The notes under the pieces were generated by a model. The model was not told the origin of the DNA. It saw only the letters and a list, made by a program, of their open reading frames with translations, and ran no database searches. The position numbers were made by a program, and so were the translations under genes. A DNA stretch of 64,000 bases from IMG/VR virus record IMGVR_UViG_3300004369_000003, positions 1-64,000 of that record. The stretch is one strand, 5' to 3'. The stretch is from a virus. Below, one piece after another: positions 3,950-37,441 of this stretch. The stretch's first letter is position 1. Each line of letters opens with the position of its first letter.

Positions 3950-6013
3950 GTGATTACTTTGGCTATCCCCTTTTCTTTCACCCTGTCCGAAGACTTTGTT
4001 AACGGTTATCGTGACAAGCAAGCACCGTTTGGTTACCGAGATGCGGGCGGTAACTCGGTGGGTGAAATTACATTCCTTCGTACTTACTCACGACTGAAGG
4101 AAGATGGCACCAAGGAGTCTTGGGCTGATGTTTGCGAACGTGTCATCAATGGCATGTACTCACTTCAGAAGGACCACTGCAAAGACAATCGTCTTCCGTG
4201 GATTGACCAGAAGGCTCAAGCATCTGCCAAGGAAGCATTTGACCGTCTCTTCAATCTGAAGTGGACACCTCCTGGTCGTGGACTTTGGGTTATGGGAACC
4301 CCAATCGTTAACGAGCAACGCAACTCTGCTGCACTTCAAAACTGTGCGTTCATCTCTACTTACGACATGCACAAGAGCAATCCAGCAAAGCCATTTGGTT
4401 TTCTCATGGAAGCATCAATGCTTGGCGTTGGTGTTGGTTTTGATGACAAGGGTGCAGATAAAGATTTTGTTATTTACAAGCCAACGAAAGAGATTCAGGA
4501 GTATCACATTCCTGACACCCGCGAGGGTTGGGTTGACTCCACCGTTGCGCTTATCAATTCGTACCTCAAAGAAGGTCAGCCGACTTACGTTTTTGACTAC
4601 TCAGTCATTCGCCCACTTGGCGAACCAATCAAGACTTTCGGCGGTACAGCAGCAGGTCCAGAACCGCTCATCAAACTCCACGAGTACATCAAGAAACTTT
4701 TTGCATCTCGCGCAGGTAAAGGCAAGTTCCTCACTCGCACAGACATTGCTGATATTGGAAACCTCATCGGTGTTTGCGTTGTCTCGGGCAACGTGCGTCG
4801 AAGCGCAGAGCTTCTCATCGGTCGCCTAGATGACGACAACTTCCTCAACTTGAAGAACTCAGAGAAATTCCCAGAGCGCAACTCTTATGACCCAGATGCT
4901 CCAGGTTGGGGTTGGATGTCCAACAACTCTGTAGAGGTTTCTGTTGGTCAGGACCTTTCTCCAATCGTTGAAGGCATCTCTCGCAATGGTGAGCCAGGTG
5001 TTCTCTGGATGGATGTCTCTCGCAAGTACGGGCGTCTTACTGATGGAGTGAACAACAAGGACCACCGAGTCGCTGGTTACAACCCATGCGCTGAGCAGTC
5101 ACTTGAGAGTGGGGAAATGTGCACGCTTGTTGAGACCTACCTCAACCGCCACGACGACCTTGAGGACTACAAGCGCACCCTGAAGTTTGCATATCTCTAT
5201 GCCAAGACCGTCACCCTTCTCCCCACCCACTGGGAAGAGACCAACGCAATCATGCAGCGCAACCGACGCATCGGAACTTCAATGTCAGGTGTTGCAAACT
5301 TTGCAGACCGAAAGGGTCTTCCGACTCTTCGCACTTGGATGGACGAGGGCTATAACACTGTCAAGCGCTATGACAATGTGTACTCAGAGTGGCTAGGTAT
5401 CCGTGAGTCCATCAAGACCACAACCGTGAAGCCTTCTGGCACCGTGTCAATTCTTGCTGGTGAGTCCCCTGGTGTTCACTGGACCCCAGGTGGTAAGTAC
5501 TTCCTTCGCACTATTCGTTTTGCGAACACCGACCCCATGCTTCCGCTCTTCAAGATGGCGAACTACAAGGTTGAAAAGGCGAGCGAGTCTCCCGACACAA
5601 CCTCAGTTGTTTACTTCCCCATCAAGTCTGACGCAGAGCGTGCAGAGCGAGATGTCACTATCTTTGAAAAGATGGCGCTCGCAGCTCAGGCTCAGCGTTA
5701 CTGGTCAGACAACTCCGTTTCCGTCACTATCTCCTTCGACCCCGAAAAAGAGTCGGAGCACATCGGCACTGTCCTTCACATGTATGACGGTCAGATGAAA
5801 ACGGTTTCATTCCTTCCGTCAGGCAACATGACCTACCCACAGATGCCTTACACGCAAATCACGGAGAAGGAATACGAGAAGTACACGATGAAACTATTCC
5901 CCATTGACTTCTCTGGTGTGTACGCAGGAATGGCTGCGGATGCAATTGGCGAGGCTTACTGCACCACAGATGCTTGTGAGATAAAGTTTGTAAAGGACAA
6001 CCAAGCAAACTAG
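3950..6013 (+). CDS. nrdJ: Class II (adenosylcobalamin-dependent) ribonucleotide reductase, monomeric RTPR-like
   Basis: RTYSR, PPGRGLW, NC, GNVRRSA, YNPCAEQ (thiyl Cys), VKPSGT and C-terminal CTTDAC. Confidence 0.93.
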   Translation: MITLAIPFSFTLSEDFVNGYRDKQAPFGYRDAGGNSVGEITFLRTYSRLKEDGTKESWADVCERVINGMYSLQKDHCKDNRLPWIDQKAQASAKEAFDRLFNLKWTPPGRGLWVMGTPIVNEQRNSAALQNCAFISTYDMHKSNPAKPFGFLMEASMLGVGVGFDDKGADKDFVIYKPTKEIQEYHIPDTREGWVDSTVALINSYLKEGQPTYVFDYSVIRPLGEPIKTFGGTAAGPEPLIKLHEYIKKLFASRAGKGKFLTRTDIADIGNLIGVCVVSGNVRRSAELLIGRLDDDNFLNLKNSEKFPERNSYDPDAPGWGWMSNNSVEVSVGQDLSPIVEGISRNGEPGVLWMDVSRKYGRLTDGVNNKDHRVAGYNPCAEQSLESGEMCTLVETYLNRHDDLEDYKRTLKFAYLYAKTVTLLPTHWEETNAIMQRNRRIGTSMSGVANFADRKGLPTLRTWMDEGYNTVKRYDNVYSEWLGIRESIKTTTVKPSGTVSILAGESPGVHWTPGGKYFLRTIRFANTDPMLPLFKMANYKVEKASESPDTTSVVYFPIKSDAERAERDVTIFEKMALAAQAQRYWSDNSVSVTISFDPEKESEHIGTVLHMYDGQMKTVSFLPSGNMTYPQMPYTQITEKEYEKYTMKLFPIDFSGVYAGMAADAIGEAYCTTDACEIKFVKDNQAN

Positions 6014-6528: not shown

Positions 6529-7377
6529 ATGGCATTTCCCATCAAGAAAGTAGTTCTACCCCGAGACCTCAAGGGTAGGCAGAACGGAAAGCTTCCCGCA
6601 GAGATTCTTGGAAACATCGGACCCTACGGTCAGATGCACCACCTCGCGGCTAATGCGTGGGAGGCAATGCGTGCTCACGCAGCCAAAGACGGAATCACGC
6701 TCGCTCATGTCGGGGACTATCGTCCCTACGACAAGCAGTACGCACTCTTTATGCAGCGCTATGTCAAGGGTGACTCTGGTGATTCGCGCAGAATCACTCG
6801 CAAGTTCCAAGGCGCTGTTTGGATGCTCAAGCCAAAGATGGCGCAAGCGGCGGTCCCTGGTACCTCCAATCACGGTTGGGGTCTGGCGATTGACTCAGCT
6901 CTGAAGGTAAACGGAAAAGTTGTTTCTATCAGTAGCAACGCTCGCGGAAATACTCACCACAAGACTGGCGTTGACTGGCTTCTTGACTACGCAGACTCCT
7001 ATGGTTTTAGTTGGGAACTTCAGTCAGAACCTTGGCATCTTCGTTACTATCCAGCAGAGTCAGTGCCTCAAGCAGTACAAAACTGGCTTGCTGGAAAACC
7101 ACGGCCTCCTAAGCCAGCAACAACTCCAGCCACCCCCGATAACCCAACCGTGGCTATCAAAACTAAGAAGCCTTGGCCTGGTGGTCGCTCACTTCGTATG
7201 GGTATGCGAAACAACATCCATGTCAAAGCAGTTCAGGCTCGTCTAGGCATCAAGGTAGATGGTCACTTCGGCCCCCAAACAAACCATCATGTGATGGACT
7301 TCCAGAAGAAGAATCCAGCATGTGGCCCAGTTGATGGGATTGTCGGACCAAAAACTTGGAAAGTGATGTTTGGGTAA
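6529..7377 (+). CDS. M15 (VanY-like) peptidase endolysin with peptidoglycan-binding domain
   Basis: YR...Q, PGTSNHGWGLAID and EPWH motifs; C-terminal DG.FGP / DGIVGPKTW PG-binding repeats. Confidence 0.88.
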   Translation: MAFPIKKVVLPRDLKGRQNGKLPAEILGNIGPYGQMHHLAANAWEAMRAHAAKDGITLAHVGDYRPYDKQYALFMQRYVKGDSGDSRRITRKFQGAVWMLKPKMAQAAVPGTSNHGWGLAIDSALKVNGKVVSISSNARGNTHHKTGVDWLLDYADSYGFSWELQSEPWHLRYYPAESVPQAVQNWLAGKPRPPKPATTPATPDNPTVAIKTKKPWPGGRSLRMGMRNNIHVKAVQARLGIKVDGHFGPQTNHHVMDFQKKNPACGPVDGIVGPKTWKVMFG

Positions 7378-7498: not shown

Positions 7499-8434
7499 AT
7501 GTCAAAGATGGTCTGGCCCCTTGACGGGTCGCCTGGTAAGGGGTTTACCGTTAGGTCGCCTTTCGGATGGCGAATCCACCCCATTTCAAAAGTACGCAAA
7601 CACCACAATGGCGCGGACATTATTGGTGGCAAATACATCAAGTCCATCGCTGATGGTGTTGTCATCACCGCTCGTGCTTCTAAATCAAAGAAGTCAAATG
7701 GTGAGCCGAATGGCTACGGCTATTTCGTAGTTGTCCGCCACAAGATTGACGGGCAGTACTACACATCTCTTTATGCCCACATGGTCAAGAACAGTTTCCA
7801 AGTAAAAGAAGGAGACAAGATTCAGGCGGGCAAGATTCTTGGTGAGATGGGAACAACTGGCGCTTCAACAGGCGTCCACCTTCATCTAGAAATCTGGAAA
7901 GGCAAGACCAACGGTTGGTCAGCCGACGGCTCTGGATTCGTTGAACCCATTGCCTTTATCCAGACTCACCTCGACAAAGACGCTGTTATTAGCGTTGCTG
8001 AACTTCCCACCCCAGACCCAGCCAAAGTCTGGACAGCACCCTCTAAGAAGCCAAAATACACAGACGCTATGTCTCGGGGTGGACAAGATGTTGGTCAGGA
8101 TGTTGCATATCTGCAGAAGTTCCTTGGCATCAAAGTAGACGGAATCTTCGGACCATTTACAGAAAAAGCCGTAATCGCTTTCCAGAAAAAGCAGAAAGGC
8201 ATCGTTGCAGATGGTGTGGTTGGTCCCATCACTTGGGGACTTATTCCAGACACCCTTGAGCCACCGAAGCCTAAGGCTCCTAAGGCACCAGCGAAGATTC
8301 ACGTTGTAAAGCGTGGCGATACATTGAGCAAGATTGCGAAAGCGTCTGGTGTGTCAGTTACGAAGCTCAAAGGACTGAACAACATCAAGAACGCAAACCT
8401 GATTAAAGTCGGGCAACAGATTAAACTGGGTTAG
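7499..8434 (+). CDS. M23 peptidase with PG-binding and LysM domains
   Basis: HNGAD, YAH, STGVHLHLE; DGIFGP/DGVVGPITW; HVVKRGDTLSKIA LysM. Confidence 0.9.
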   Translation: MSKMVWPLDGSPGKGFTVRSPFGWRIHPISKVRKHHNGADIIGGKYIKSIADGVVITARASKSKKSNGEPNGYGYFVVVRHKIDGQYYTSLYAHMVKNSFQVKEGDKIQAGKILGEMGTTGASTGVHLHLEIWKGKTNGWSADGSGFVEPIAFIQTHLDKDAVISVAELPTPDPAKVWTAPSKKPKYTDAMSRGGQDVGQDVAYLQKFLGIKVDGIFGPFTEKAVIAFQKKQKGIVADGVVGPITWGLIPDTLEPPKPKAPKAPAKIHVVKRGDTLSKIAKASGVSVTKLKGLNNIKNANLIKVGQQIKLG

Positions 8435-8607
8435 TGCCCACTTACGAATATAAATGCCCTCTGGGTCACCTCTACCAGGAAGAGCGGTCTATGAAAGAAG
8501 ACCAGCGCCTGGTGAGGTGTCCCGAGTGCGATAGACCTCTTATCCGTATTTATAAGCCCGCTGGTATAACATTCAAGGGTAAGGGTTTCTACTCAACAGG
8601 AGGATAG
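8434..8607 (+). CDS. FmdB-family zinc-ribbon protein (57 aa, not in ORF track)
   Basis: GTG start; translates MPTYEYKCPLGH...CPECD...ITFKGKGFYSTGG. Confidence 0.85.
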   Translation: MPTYEYKCPLGHLYQEERSMKEDQRLVRCPECDRPLIRIYKPAGITFKGKGFYSTGG

Positions 8608-9830: not shown

Positions 9831-9872
9831 AAGCGCGGGGGCCCCTGAATTACGGGGGCCCTCGCTGCTTTT
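9831..9872. terminator. Terminator between convergent genes
   Basis: GC-rich stem GGGCCCC/GGGGCCC followed by GCTTTT. Confidence 0.75.
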
Positions 9873-10683
9873 ATTCGTAGGTAATAGTTGTCTCAACTAT
9901 CTTGAATGTCTCCCCTAAAAACATCCAATCTTTGTGGTCCTCTTCTGCAACCACAACAACTTCGTATGTACCAAGCAAAGGCTGGGGGTCTACATACTCT
10001 CCATTGATAAGGAGCTCAAAATGGAGGTGGGGGCCAGTTGACATACCAGTGTTTCCCACCTCTCCCAACTTCTCTCCTGTTTTTACTACGGAGCCAATCT
10101 TGAGTTCTTTAGGAAAAGAGTTTGTTCTCATGTGGGCGTAGAGAGTCGTCCATTCATCAACTTCACCCTCTGCATTTCCTACAAGATGATTTAGAACTAT
10201 GTAGTTTCCGTAACCACCATTCTCTCCCATCTCAACAACCATTCCGTCTGTGATGGCGTAGATAGGCTCTCCATACCCAGGAACGAAGTCAACACCTCTG
10301 TGGTCGGCACTACACCCGTCGCAAGGAGGAGTTCTCCATCCATAGTCGCTGCTGATTTCTGGGTCATCAACAGGCCATCTGGTGTTTGCAACCTTCATGT
10401 AGTTGATGGTCTTAGTGATTGTAATTCCGTCATCTATGTCTTGCGTCTTTGGCTTAAAGAGTCCCTCTAGTTGCTCTTGAGCAACTTCTGTGATTGTCAT
10501 TGTGTTTGTTGGATACTCGGGTCCTCCTGAGCCGAAGTAGTCGCTCATAAGACTATGAGGGCTTTCCTTCTGAATCAGGACGCTTGTATCTCGAAACTCC
10601 TGACTAGCTTCAGCAGCACTAAAAAGCATTGGAGTAAACAAGTAAAGCGAACTAATAATTACTGCGCTCGTTCTGTGGTGCAT
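9871..10683 (-). CDS. Secreted M23 peptidase
   Basis: Signal peptide ending AEA; HRGVD, YAH and STGPHLHFE motifs. Confidence 0.88.
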   Translation of the reverse strand: MHHRTSAVIISSLYLFTPMLFSAAEASQEFRDTSVLIQKESPHSLMSDYFGSGGPEYPTNTMTITEVAQEQLEGLFKPKTQDIDDGITITKTINYMKVANTRWPVDDPEISSDYGWRTPPCDGCSADHRGVDFVPGYGEPIYAITDGMVVEMGENGGYGNYIVLNHLVGNAEGEVDEWTTLYAHMRTNSFPKELKIGSVVKTGEKLGEVGNTGMSTGPHLHFELLINGEYVDPQPLLGTYEVVVVAEEDHKDWMFLGETFKIVETTITYE

Positions 10684-10938
10684 TTCTGCCCCCTTTTCAT
10701 TACGTCATTCCAGTATAAGCAGAAATTATAATAAACGCCTAATGAAAACTCAAATAAATACAGAAGCACTTTTGAGTTTTTTACATCAGCACAAGTAAGC
10801 CGATGCACTCACATCCCAATAAATAAAAGGGATGTAGCCCCATTGAGTCCATGAGAAAATTTATTTCTAACGTCTTTTCTAGACGTTTTTTCTTTCCCCC
10901 CAAACCGCCCCGTTTTTCTGCATATTTAGGAGAATCTT

Positions 10939-11016
10939 ATGGACCCCGAAATTATTGATGGCTATGCCTGCCCCGTGGACCCCATGGAAGCACTGCAATG
11001 CGAGAGCTGCCAGTAA
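10939..11016 (+). CDS. 25-aa peptide resembling the C-terminal CxxC tail of class I RNR alpha (NrdA)
   Basis: AGGAG RBS; MDPEIIDGYACPVDPMEALQCESCQ*; stop overlaps the nrdB ATG (TAATG). Confidence 0.75.
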   Translation: MDPEIIDGYACPVDPMEALQCESCQ

Positions 11017-11996
11017 TGGGAATTTTAGGTACAGGAATTCAAGAAGGTCTTCTCCTCAAGCCAGTGCGCTATCAGTGGGCCATGGACCTCTACGACCAGG
11101 CTGTTGCTAACACCTGGTTCCCCAACGAGGTTCAACTTGGTGAAGACATCGCTGACTTCAAGAAGATGACGGACGAAGAGCGTCACGCTATTGAGTTTTT
11201 GATGTCTTTCTTCAATCCTTCGGAACTCATTGTCAACAAGGCGCTCGCGTTCGGTGTCTACCCCTACGTCAACGCTCCCGAGGCGCACCTCTACCTCGCG
11301 AAGCAAATGTGGGAAGAAGCCAACCACTGCATGTCGTTTGAGTATGTTCTTGAGACATTCCCACTTGACCGCGAGAAGGCATACGCCCAACATGTTGAGT
11401 CACCGACTATTGCAGCCAAAGAAGCGTTTGAAACCAAGTACATCACTCGCATGACCGAGCACACTCTTGACATCAACACCGTTGAAGGCAAGCAGGATTT
11501 TGTTCGAAACTTGGTGGCATACAACATCATCATGGAGGGCATCTGGTTCTACTCGGGCTTCATGGTTGCTCTGAGTTTCCGTCAGCGCAACCTACTCAGG
11601 AACTACGCATCTCTCATTGATTGGGTTGTTCGTGACGAGAGTCTTCACCTCAAGTTCGGCATCAACCTCATCCTCACCGTTTTGGAGGAGAACCCCGAGA
11701 TTGTGACAGATGAGTTTGTCGCTGAGGTTAGGCAGATGATTCTTGACGCTGTTGAACTGGAGTGCGCTTACAACGAAGAGATGTTCCCTGGTGGCATCTT
11801 GGGTCTTAACCACAAGTACGTCAGTCAGTACACGAAGTACCTCGCAGACCGCCGCTTTGAGGAGTTGGGATTCCCTGCTCACTACAACGTTGGTAACCCT
11901 GCCAAGTGGATGGCGACCGCCAACGACACTCTGCAGTTGGTGAACTTCTTTGAGTCGCTCAACACTTCTTATGAAGTAAATGCAAAGGTGGCTTAA
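11016..11996 (+). CDS. nrdB: Class I ribonucleotide reductase beta subunit
   Basis: W.P.EV.L..D, EEANH, MEGIWFYSGF, RDESLH and NFFE...SYE dimetal/radical-pathway motifs; start placed at MGILG. Confidence 0.92.
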   Translation: MGILGTGIQEGLLLKPVRYQWAMDLYDQAVANTWFPNEVQLGEDIADFKKMTDEERHAIEFLMSFFNPSELIVNKALAFGVYPYVNAPEAHLYLAKQMWEEANHCMSFEYVLETFPLDREKAYAQHVESPTIAAKEAFETKYITRMTEHTLDINTVEGKQDFVRNLVAYNIIMEGIWFYSGFMVALSFRQRNLLRNYASLIDWVVRDESLHLKFGINLILTVLEENPEIVTDEFVAEVRQMILDAVELECAYNEEMFPGGILGLNHKYVSQYTKYLADRRFEELGFPAHYNVGNPAKWMATANDTLQLVNFFESLNTSYEVNAKVA

Positions 11997-12070: not shown

Positions 12071-12217
12071 ATGACACTCCAGGTAATTGAAGTTCAGAGC
12101 AAGGACAAGACTCGGGTCTACAACATTGATGGGCCACAAAGAGAAACAGTTGAGTCCTTCTGGAACTGGCTCAAGACGAACCGAATAATCGAGAGTTTTG
12201 AGATAACTGAAAAGTAG
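12071..12217 (+). CDS. Small hypothetical protein (48 aa)
   Basis: MTLQVIEVQSKDK...FEITEK*, preceded by a purine-rich RBS and followed by a terminator. Confidence 0.5.
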   Translation: MTLQVIEVQSKDKTRVYNIDGPQRETVESFWNWLKTNRIIESFEITEK

Positions 12218-12221
12218 CGTG

Positions 12222-12246
12222 AGCCCCCTCTTCGGAGGGGGTTTTC
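12222..12246 (+). terminator. Intrinsic terminator
   Basis: CCCCCTC-TTCG-GAGGGGG-TTTT (UUCG tetraloop). Confidence 0.85.
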
Positions 12247-18211: not shown

Positions 18212-18469
18212 ATGATTTATTGCAAGATGCCCGAATATGACGTAACAGTCATGCGGAACATGCAAGGCCAACTTGGCTGTTACATGTGCAAGTTTGGCGA
18301 CATGATAGAGACCGTCTATCACCCAGAGTCCACTCAAGAAATGTTGGACCACCTGTCAGCGCACGACCGCGCAGGAGACAAAGTTCCCCTCGGCCTCCAC
18401 ACTCAACTGGTGAACGACGACGAAAAGAACTTCCCCCAGAACTTGAAGACGGAGCCGCCTCGTCTCTGA
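18212..18469 (+). CDS. Hypothetical protein
   Basis: GGAGGAG RBS; CxxC...H..H. Confidence 0.65.
   Translation: MIYCKMPEYDVTVMRNMQGQLGCYMCKFGDMIETVYHPESTQEMLDHLSAHDRAGDKVPLGLHTQLVNDDEKNFPQNLKTEPPRL

Positions 18470-32554: not shown

Positions 32555-37441
<4,887 letters not shown>

Follow-up and report, generated by a model that had tools for sequence, protein, structure and literature searches.

Background

In class I ribonucleotide reductases (RNRs), the active site is regenerated by a cysteine pair located on the large subunit's own tail, as with C754/C759 of E. coli NrdA or the CxxC of eukaryotic R1. The locus described here raises the question of whether such a tail may exist as a gene of its own, and for which enzyme it would then work. 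The window (i.e., the whole stretch of DNA analysed, 64,000 nucleotides) corresponds to positions 1 to 64,000 of the virus record IMGVR_UViG_3300004369_000003, which is 102.5 kb long and 78% complete. In this window, a first-pass annotation made from the letters alone had noticed a 25-codon ORF (hereafter mini-ORF) in front of nrdB, had likened its product to the C-terminal tail of NrdA, and had proposed that the phage kept only the electron shuttle of this protein and gave it a start codon.

Organization of the mini-ORF locus

Table 1. Features of the mini-ORF locus and of the RNR genes in the window.
Feature	Position	Strand	Description
RTPR	3950..6013	+	Monomeric B12-type (class II) RNR, 687 aa; TIGR02505 366 bits (cut-off 340); PDB 1l1l 1.6e-99
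M23 peptidase gene	9871-10683	minus	Pfam M23; divergent from the mini-ORF
Intergenic region	10684..10938	.	Non-coding, from the divergent M23 peptidase gene to the mini-ORF; ~255 nt, ~40% GC
Shine-Dalgarno AGGAG	10928..10932	+	6 nt 5' of the mini-ORF ATG (10939); read directly
Mini-ORF	10939..11016	+	25 codons + stop; stand-alone gene homologous to the C-terminal redox tail of class Ic NrdA
nrdB	11016..11996	+	Class Ic (R2c-type) RNR beta; PF00268 Ribonuc_red_sm 7e-75; NF007186 372 bits
Terminator-like hairpin	12226..12241	+	After the 48-aa ORF 12071-12217, before tRNA-Thr; consensus scan only

The signals could be read directly as first described: AGGAG-N6-ATG opens the 25 codons, and the last A of the TAA stop (11014-11016) is also the first letter of the nrdB ATG (TAATG). 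For nrdB, alignments with the proteins of relatives begin at the ATG at 11016, leaving aside an in-frame ATG further upstream (10998). The upstream in-frame stop of the mini-ORF is a TAG at 10927-10929, and the stop-to-stop frame contains only 29 codons, which means that the mini-ORF is not the end of a longer protein. Its product is an acidic peptide with three cysteines, ending in ...DPMEALQCESCQ (C-terminal residues P-V-D-P-M-E-A-L-Q-C-E-S-C-Q), and a cysteine pair (CxxC) lies within the final ~10 residues, as in class I tails; having its own Shine-Dalgarno sequence and ATG, it is not covalently attached to an alpha polypeptide. At 25 aa, it is also not a thioredoxin-fold redoxin (NrdH, Grx, Trx), since these have ~75-110 aa and a CxxC at the start of helix 1. 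No family was found for the peptide in Pfam, NCBIfam or PHROGs, and no PDB entry was matched by a profile made from aligned members (E up to 10). The expectation that gene callers would miss such a frame was borne out, as there is no recorded copy of the exact peptide.

The DNA upstream of the mini-ORF proved to be non-coding and AT-rich, as had been stated. It contains a hairpin followed by a T-run (10869-10887). Inverted repeats are present in addition at 10745-10785 and 10810-10840, neither of which is an NrdR box; one intergenic inverted repeat reads AAAACTCAAA...TTTGAGTTTT and then Ts, and the other ACATCCC-N11-GGGATGT. The Rfam scan of the locus returned tRNA only, with no Rfam element in the intergenic region, and the promoter scan found no plus-strand sigma-70-like site 5' of the mini-ORF. 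Downstream, the terminator-like hairpin of Table 1 probably ends the mini-ORF/nrdB transcription unit. DNA contigs from two other studies span the mini-ORF, and among the differences listed G10975A (V13M, at a family-variable site) is the only one within it, the intergenic region 5' of it showing 11 substitutions and 1 indel; as the list omits 3 differences of that contig, the contrast is taken as a soft hint. In one metatranscriptome run (X20), contigs covered conserved nrdB segments only, with flanks unlike those of the window, which is neutral as to transcription of the mini-ORF.

Note that genes of cell-wall hydrolase type, three or four in number, are found within 10 kb of sequence (998-1888, 6529-7377, 7499-8434 and 9871-10683). 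The first is assigned to Amidase_2 by Pfam, and reading the translation of 7499-8434 suggests M23, LysM-like and PG-binding-like segments. A 57-aa ORF with two CxxC pairs (8434-8607) presumably resembles an FmdB-type zinc-ribbon protein.

RNR genes of the phage record

The nearest solved structures to the phage NrdB are those of C. trachomatis R2c (1syy/4d8f), and the alignment with 1syy places a Glu at the first metal ligand and a Phe at the radical-Tyr site (aligned segments ...E-E-A-N-H-C-M-S-F... and ...N-P-S-E-L...); the protein is therefore of class Ic. It is 77-90% identical to actinobacterial (host) NrdBs. The RTPR is the sole RNR alpha in the 102.5-kb record (78% complete). No class I NrdA core was found in this record at its 78% completeness, and the proposed client of the peptide is consequently a host protein, although a phage nrdA could sit in the missing part. 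The record also contains no second copy of the tail peptide and no thioredoxin or glutaredoxin gene. In this one phage, a complete class II RTPR stands beside an ‘orphan’ class Ic NrdB, with no class I alpha in the record.

The peptide might supply additional reducing power to the B12-dependent RTPR of the phage itself, which is the phage NrdJ role offered by the first-pass annotation, and indeed both genes occur in one phage, 5 kb apart. However, this enzyme bears its own Cx4C pair (Y-C-T-T-D-A-C) at its C-terminus, as does the L. leichmannii RTPR (1l1l) that it matches; moreover, the peptide family tracks class Ic NrdA/NrdB and not RTPR, and relatives without any alpha retain the peptide, so that we regard this role as very unlikely. 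The possibility that the mini-ORF is a 3' exon or an intein-split part of the RTPR was rejected as well, because the RTPR has its own tail and belongs to a different family.

Homology to the tails of complete NrdA proteins

The resemblance to an NrdA C-terminus was confirmed with a Demequina protein, which is a class I NrdA (NF005101, 1498 bits; nearest structure P. aeruginosa NrdA, 5im3) ending in ...VACPVDPMERLQCESCQ. Its last 19 residues share 16 identical positions with the mini-ORF peptide. When this NrdA was used as query against the phage record, the mini-ORF was the only region found (10900-11013, E 2.5e-7), the match extending a few codons 5' of the mini-ORF through the TAG. The same protein bears out the statement, part of the first description, that actinobacterial NrdA ends in a CxxCQ-type sequence. 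In Demequina, in some CPR bacteria and in one gammaproteobacterial MAG, a protein of 900-1100 aa has the motif at its very C-terminus, and these NF005101-type fused tails present the same P-x-D-P-M-[DE]-x-[LMF]-x-C-[DE]-[SG]-C-Q at the very end. As far as protein comparison can establish it, the mini-ORF peptide is shown to be homologous to a genuine NrdA C-terminal redox tail. Among the matches listed, the subtype of the window (three cysteines; ...C-P-x-D-P-M-E-A-L...) is free only in viruses and fused in Demequina.

A pattern search at the DNA level with the core motif P-x-D-P-M-[DE]-x3-C-[DE]-x-C-Q-stop gave at least 120 matches in the viral and at least 120 in the cellular genome collection. 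As the chance expectation in the viral collection is estimated at ~0.001, the occurrence of the mini-ORF is far beyond chance.

Conservation among related phages

The standing of the mini-ORF as a gene was examined across 33 IMG/VR loci with an NrdB at 67-94% identity, many of which contain it (e.g., L002-L006 and L010-L016, and others), each time as a short frame. Its position relative to nrdB varies considerably: the tail ORF overlaps the nrdB start in L002-L005, lies 17 nt 5' of it in L006, 70-80 nt 5' in L011 and L014 and ~1 kb 5' in L010, L012, L031 and L033, and is found directly 3' of nrdB in L016, L025 and L026. As had been anticipated for a translated gene, the ORF is kept across phage genomes and its copies in relatives are preceded by a Shine-Dalgarno-like sequence or overlap the preceding stop codon. 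Compared with L005, the last 18 codons of the mini-ORF display 12 synonymous differences and 1 non-synonymous difference. This pattern of substitution shows, at the level of codons, a real gene under purifying selection.

The cysteines are conserved in part: the terminal C-x-x-C-Q is conserved, being invariant in 19 aligned members (partly by ascertainment), and the first cysteine, that of Y-A-C-P, is variable across the family. In L025 and L026, which have the most divergent NrdB of the phage loci (67% identity), a ~47-aa frame just 3' of nrdB (~4120-4264) ends in ...N-D-P-S-T-D-F-V-C-D-S-C-Q; as this frame is without the D-P-M core, the tail family must be wider than the search pattern.

These observations bear on another explanation of the locus, namely that the mini-ORF is a mere translational coupler or leader for nrdB, or else what is left, in decay, of an nrdA that was deleted. 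In its favour are the overlap of stop and nrdB start (TAATG) and the match of the Demequina NrdA, which runs a few codons upstream through the TAG. Nevertheless, synonymous changes dominate when closest relatives are compared, the peptide is also encoded at a distance from nrdB, 3' of it or where the genome has no nrdB at all, and many phage nrdB genes have their own Shine-Dalgarno sequence with no mini-ORF upstream. Since the gene shifts position yet keeps its amino-acid sequence, it is neither a deletion scar nor a mere coupler, the latter role having been suggested by the first-pass annotation, and we consider this explanation hardly tenable.

Split nrdA and detached tails in host genomes

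Almost all the cellular matches to the core motif that are listed belong to Actinomycetota, mainly Microbacteriaceae. Among them, 54 nrdA-nrdB loci contain both the nrdA 3' end and the tail motif, and the tail is separate from nrdA in 42 of these actinobacterial loci and fused in 12. In the fused loci of this set, the tail is joined by a 70-200-aa low-complexity linker. In the 42 split loci, a ...[RK][RK]GFG... sequence free of cysteines is the last part of NrdA, with 0 Cys in its last 120 aa, and the tail is encoded by an ORF of 22-47 aa, whose start overlaps the nrdA stop (ATGA/GTGA/TAATG) or lies 2-9 nt beyond it; nrdB then follows within 148 nt of the tail ORF or overlaps its stop by one base (all among the matches listed). 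The C-terminal extension of this NrdA clade contains two or three [RK][RK]GFG(F/G) repeats (e.g., L177:176-2647 and L194:3941-7012), which are present in split and fused NrdA and also in phage NrdA (...KKGFGF...); these repeats could be a docking site for the tail, beta or the redoxin.

Judging from these operons, the split was not invented by the phage, as had been proposed, but is already present in the likely hosts (Microbacteriaceae and neighbouring Actinomycetota), with the tail as a separate, coupled ORF in 42/54 actinobacterial operons among the matches listed; in addition, it circulates as an independent gene in many actinophages. The idea that the mini-ORF is one half of a split nrdA consequently holds for the hosts, whose genomes encode the tail-less class I NrdA beside it, and not for the phage record, which has no NrdA core. 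A tail-less nrdA encoded elsewhere, which this idea calls for, was indeed found in those 42/54 loci (matches listed) and in two phages (G009 and G010). We consider the host-side split as the main discovery, to which the window adds a phage with beta and tail for which the matching alpha is absent.

Existing annotations of these peptides need correction. Host copies of 25-28 aa are labelled ‘ribonucleotide-diphosphate reductase subunit beta’ by PGAP (GenBank ANF32687.1, QNE37869.1, MBT4909326.1 and others), which is wrong, as the peptides are homologues of the alpha tail; for the copy of Clavibacter, the entry reads ‘Ribonucleotide reductase, alpha 2 subunit’, and phage copies, those of CMP1 and phiPsal1 included, are unannotated.

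About half of the cellular matches listed sit away from RNR genes, the orphan host copy being located ~125 nt 5' of a MaoC-type dehydratase gene and murB. Examples are L155:678-758, L161:4185-4268 and ~60 other cellular loci, with a MaoC/FAS1-type neighbour; an identity as ribosomal protein L33 was also considered for the orphan copy and rejected, there being no similarity to L33. Among the matches listed, an NF005101 NrdA is present in 24/26 genomes with the orphan copy, and in 6/6 genomes checked the orphan coexists with a distinct operon copy, giving two paralogues. Using a threshold of at least 11/12 core positions, a 16-bp NrdR box was detected at 48 of the 61 orphan copies (matches listed), compared to 0.1 in shuffles and 0/56 in the downstream control. 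Positions C4, A6, A8, T9, T11 and G13 are highly conserved in NrdR boxes (PMC13584703), and the typical box of the orphan copy, ACACTACATGTAGTGG, has all six. A second box occurs 33 bp off in 23 orphan loci (among the matches listed), and the nrdA genes of the same clade have NrdR boxes in 25/35 loci, with a spacing of 31-33 bp; NrdR itself is encoded in 5/5 genomes checked. To the extent that operator boxes reveal it, the host orphan copy is shown to be under NrdR control, and, because the orphan copies carry NrdR operators, the free peptide is tied to ribonucleotide reduction independently of synteny. On the viral side, none of the 115 tail copies (among the matches listed) has an NrdR box, and the intergenic region of the window has none matching at least 10/16 positions.

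Distribution in phages and origin

Five phage genomes (G002, G003, G006, G007 and G008) contain nrdB, no PF02867 alpha of any class and one tail gene each; the first four have terminal repeats, with a CheckV completeness of 100% for G006/G007 and ~70% for G002/G003, and G008 is 96% complete. The two phages that retain a tail-less nrdA, G009 and G010, also belong to this set of RNR-bearing genomes, the tail gene of G010 being placed 5' of nrdA. In a quick NrdB tree, 22 actinophage-type phage sequences and one MAG group together (SH-aLRT 87) beside a Microbacteriaceae/Demequina clade with modest support, and the nrdA-bearing phages are nested among the alpha-less ones. This topology, at its modest support, is compatible with an nrdA-tail-nrdB unit having been captured once and nrdA having been lost several times thereafter. 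For the phage of the window, the most likely origin would be the same, i.e., capture of a host-type nrdA-tail-nrdB unit from which nrdA was later lost. Note that the NrdB of an Actinomycetota MAG (L256) falls inside the phage clade, where it joins four phages with an SH-aLRT of 96; the sequence may come from a prophage, from faulty binning or from a lineage near the true donor.

The tail gene is also found without nrdB or alpha, in 22/22 smaller phage or prophage genomes among the matches listed (11 of them at least 90% complete). It lies between terL and portal in 31 viral loci (among the matches listed), and another position in smaller phages is after an M23 peptidase gene and small ORFs. 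Two cultured phages are carriers, and in both the start of the tail mini-ORF overlaps the holin stop: Clavibacter phage CMP1 (L289, GQ241246 ~36704-36772), through TAATG, and Pontimonas phage phiPsal1 (L288, MG835450 ~18371-18463), through ATGAGTGA, the copy of the latter ending in C-T-S-C-Q. Their hosts, Clavibacter and Pontimonas, are genera having the split-tail system.

The positions at terL/portal and at holin suggest late expression of the tail gene, which fits a dNTP-supply role poorly and keeps alive a different reading, already offered in the first-pass annotation as a decoy for host redoxins. According to this reading, the phage peptide would act as a redox decoy or modulator that ties up or redirects the host thioredoxin-type reductant, or that occupies host NrdA; it would agree with the many phages that carry the peptide without any RNR gene, with the frequent coupling of the peptide gene to late or lysis genes, and with phage copies being outside NrdR control. 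Nevertheless, the window and its five alpha-less relatives pair the peptide with an intact, conserved nrdB, which is sensible only if host RNR activity is wanted, and the peptide retains, unchanged from the functional copies of the hosts, the two cysteines and the entire docking motif. We thus hold a decoy to be unlikely.

A proposed diffusible dithiol shuttle for a tail-less NrdA

In class I RNR, the C-terminal cysteine pair re-reduces the active-site disulfide and is itself reduced by a redoxin (PMC9669993; PMC4078304). A tail-less NrdA must receive this re-reduction in trans, and the detached, coupled and NrdR-controlled peptide is the obvious provider. We therefore propose, with a probability of about 60%, that the mini-ORF encodes a detached class Ic NrdA tail and that this peptide, as a diffusible dithiol shuttle, works for the tail-less NrdA of the host, an enzyme that the phage NrdB would serve as well. 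Of the roles that had been suggested, a trans-acting reductant for host NrdA is the best supported. From the genomic evidence we infer three parts of this proposal: redox shuttling in trans, pairing with host NrdA, and benefit to the phage.

The proposed mechanism would run as follows. In the host clade, NrdA has lost its own cysteine pair, and the tail would be made as a separate peptide of ~25 aa from one copy between nrdA and nrdB and from a second copy elsewhere under NrdR. The reduced peptide (C-x-x-C) would enter the active site of the tail-less NrdA and re-reduce the disulfide formed at each turnover, and the oxidised peptide would then be re-reduced by a host thioredoxin-type system. 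In an infected cell, the phage NrdB (as radical generator) and the phage tail peptide (as reductant shuttle) might both serve host NrdA, with the phage RTPR presumably running separately on its own tail. Such a division of labour would also explain the ‘orphan’ nrdB of alpha-less phages, for which the phage would supply beta and tail and the host alpha.

A complex prediction for host NrdA with its 33-aa peptide gave a median ipSAE of 0.54, compared to 0.00 for the best control, with a partner pLDDT of at least 51 and at least 56% of contacts shared between runs. The mark used here is passed by 58/80 solved complexes and 2/110 mismatched pairs; an ipSAE of 0.60 or less is rare among the solved complexes (7 of 80), whereas the two mismatched pairs above the mark both have one. 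The prediction lends weak support to the pairing, and the score may reflect the model's memory of RNR tails.

The peptide could instead have a role other than shuttling, either in Mn/Fe or Zn handling for the class Ic beta or as a small regulatory subunit permanently bound to NrdA/NrdB. The location of its gene directly 5' of nrdB with overlapping stop and start, the three cysteines of the window subtype and the Mn/Fe R2c type of the NrdB would all be compatible with such a role; nevertheless, it appears rather improbable to us, since the first cysteine is not conserved, in the fused forms the motif closes the alpha polypeptide after a long flexible linker (i.e., the classical redox-tail architecture), and the split NrdAs have no other C-terminal cysteine pair, so that the job of the tail must be taken over.

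What can be stated beyond any functional reading is that the tail is a separate gene product across a bacterial clade, with an NrdR-controlled paralogue, and that many phages have it too. Should the peptide be a shuttle, RNR turnover would be tunable by the amount of a 25-residue peptide, and an auxiliary gene that is among the smallest known could allow a phage to boost or hijack dNTP synthesis in its host. On a more tentative level, at somewhat less than even odds, the genes for free RNR tail peptides may form a class of their own among phage auxiliary genes, minimal and mobile, in which a gene of ~80 nt lets an actinophage plug into, or control, the tail-less class Ic RNR of its host, alone or together with a phage NrdB. 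The ‘tail’ would then be in effect a diffusible, NrdR-regulated redox cofactor peptide and not an enzyme part.

Comparison with known systems

In the literature searched, we found no class I tail described as having a gene of its own. In the operon, the detached tail takes the position of the covalent alpha tails, with the alpha core before it and nrdB after it; the chemistry is presumably shared, the active-site disulfide being re-reduced first and the tail then by a redoxin. In contrast, the free peptide is unattached, with its own start codon and ~25 aa, has host paralogues, and also occurs in phages without alpha or any RNR gene. The NrdH redoxin and the glutaredoxin domain fused to NrdB (PMC6187632) are likewise small dithiol partners in or near the RNR operon that deliver electrons. 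However, they are thioredoxin-fold proteins that reduce the tail, whereas the mini-ORF peptide is the tail itself, 25 aa long, without a fold or a Pfam family. Among RNRs whose catalytic subunit is divided, NrdJb is a second piece that carries the C-terminal cysteines. The nearest precedents are the class II NrdJa/NrdJb of P. aeruginosa (PMC4520616) and the nrdA of Aeromonas phage Aeh1, which is split by a mobile endonuclease (PMC3045599); here, too, the catalytic subunit is encoded in two pieces. In both of these cases, the second piece is a folded domain of more than 200 aa that adjoins the first, whereas in the system described here only the disordered tail is detached, it belongs to class Ic, and it has become an independently mobile gene.
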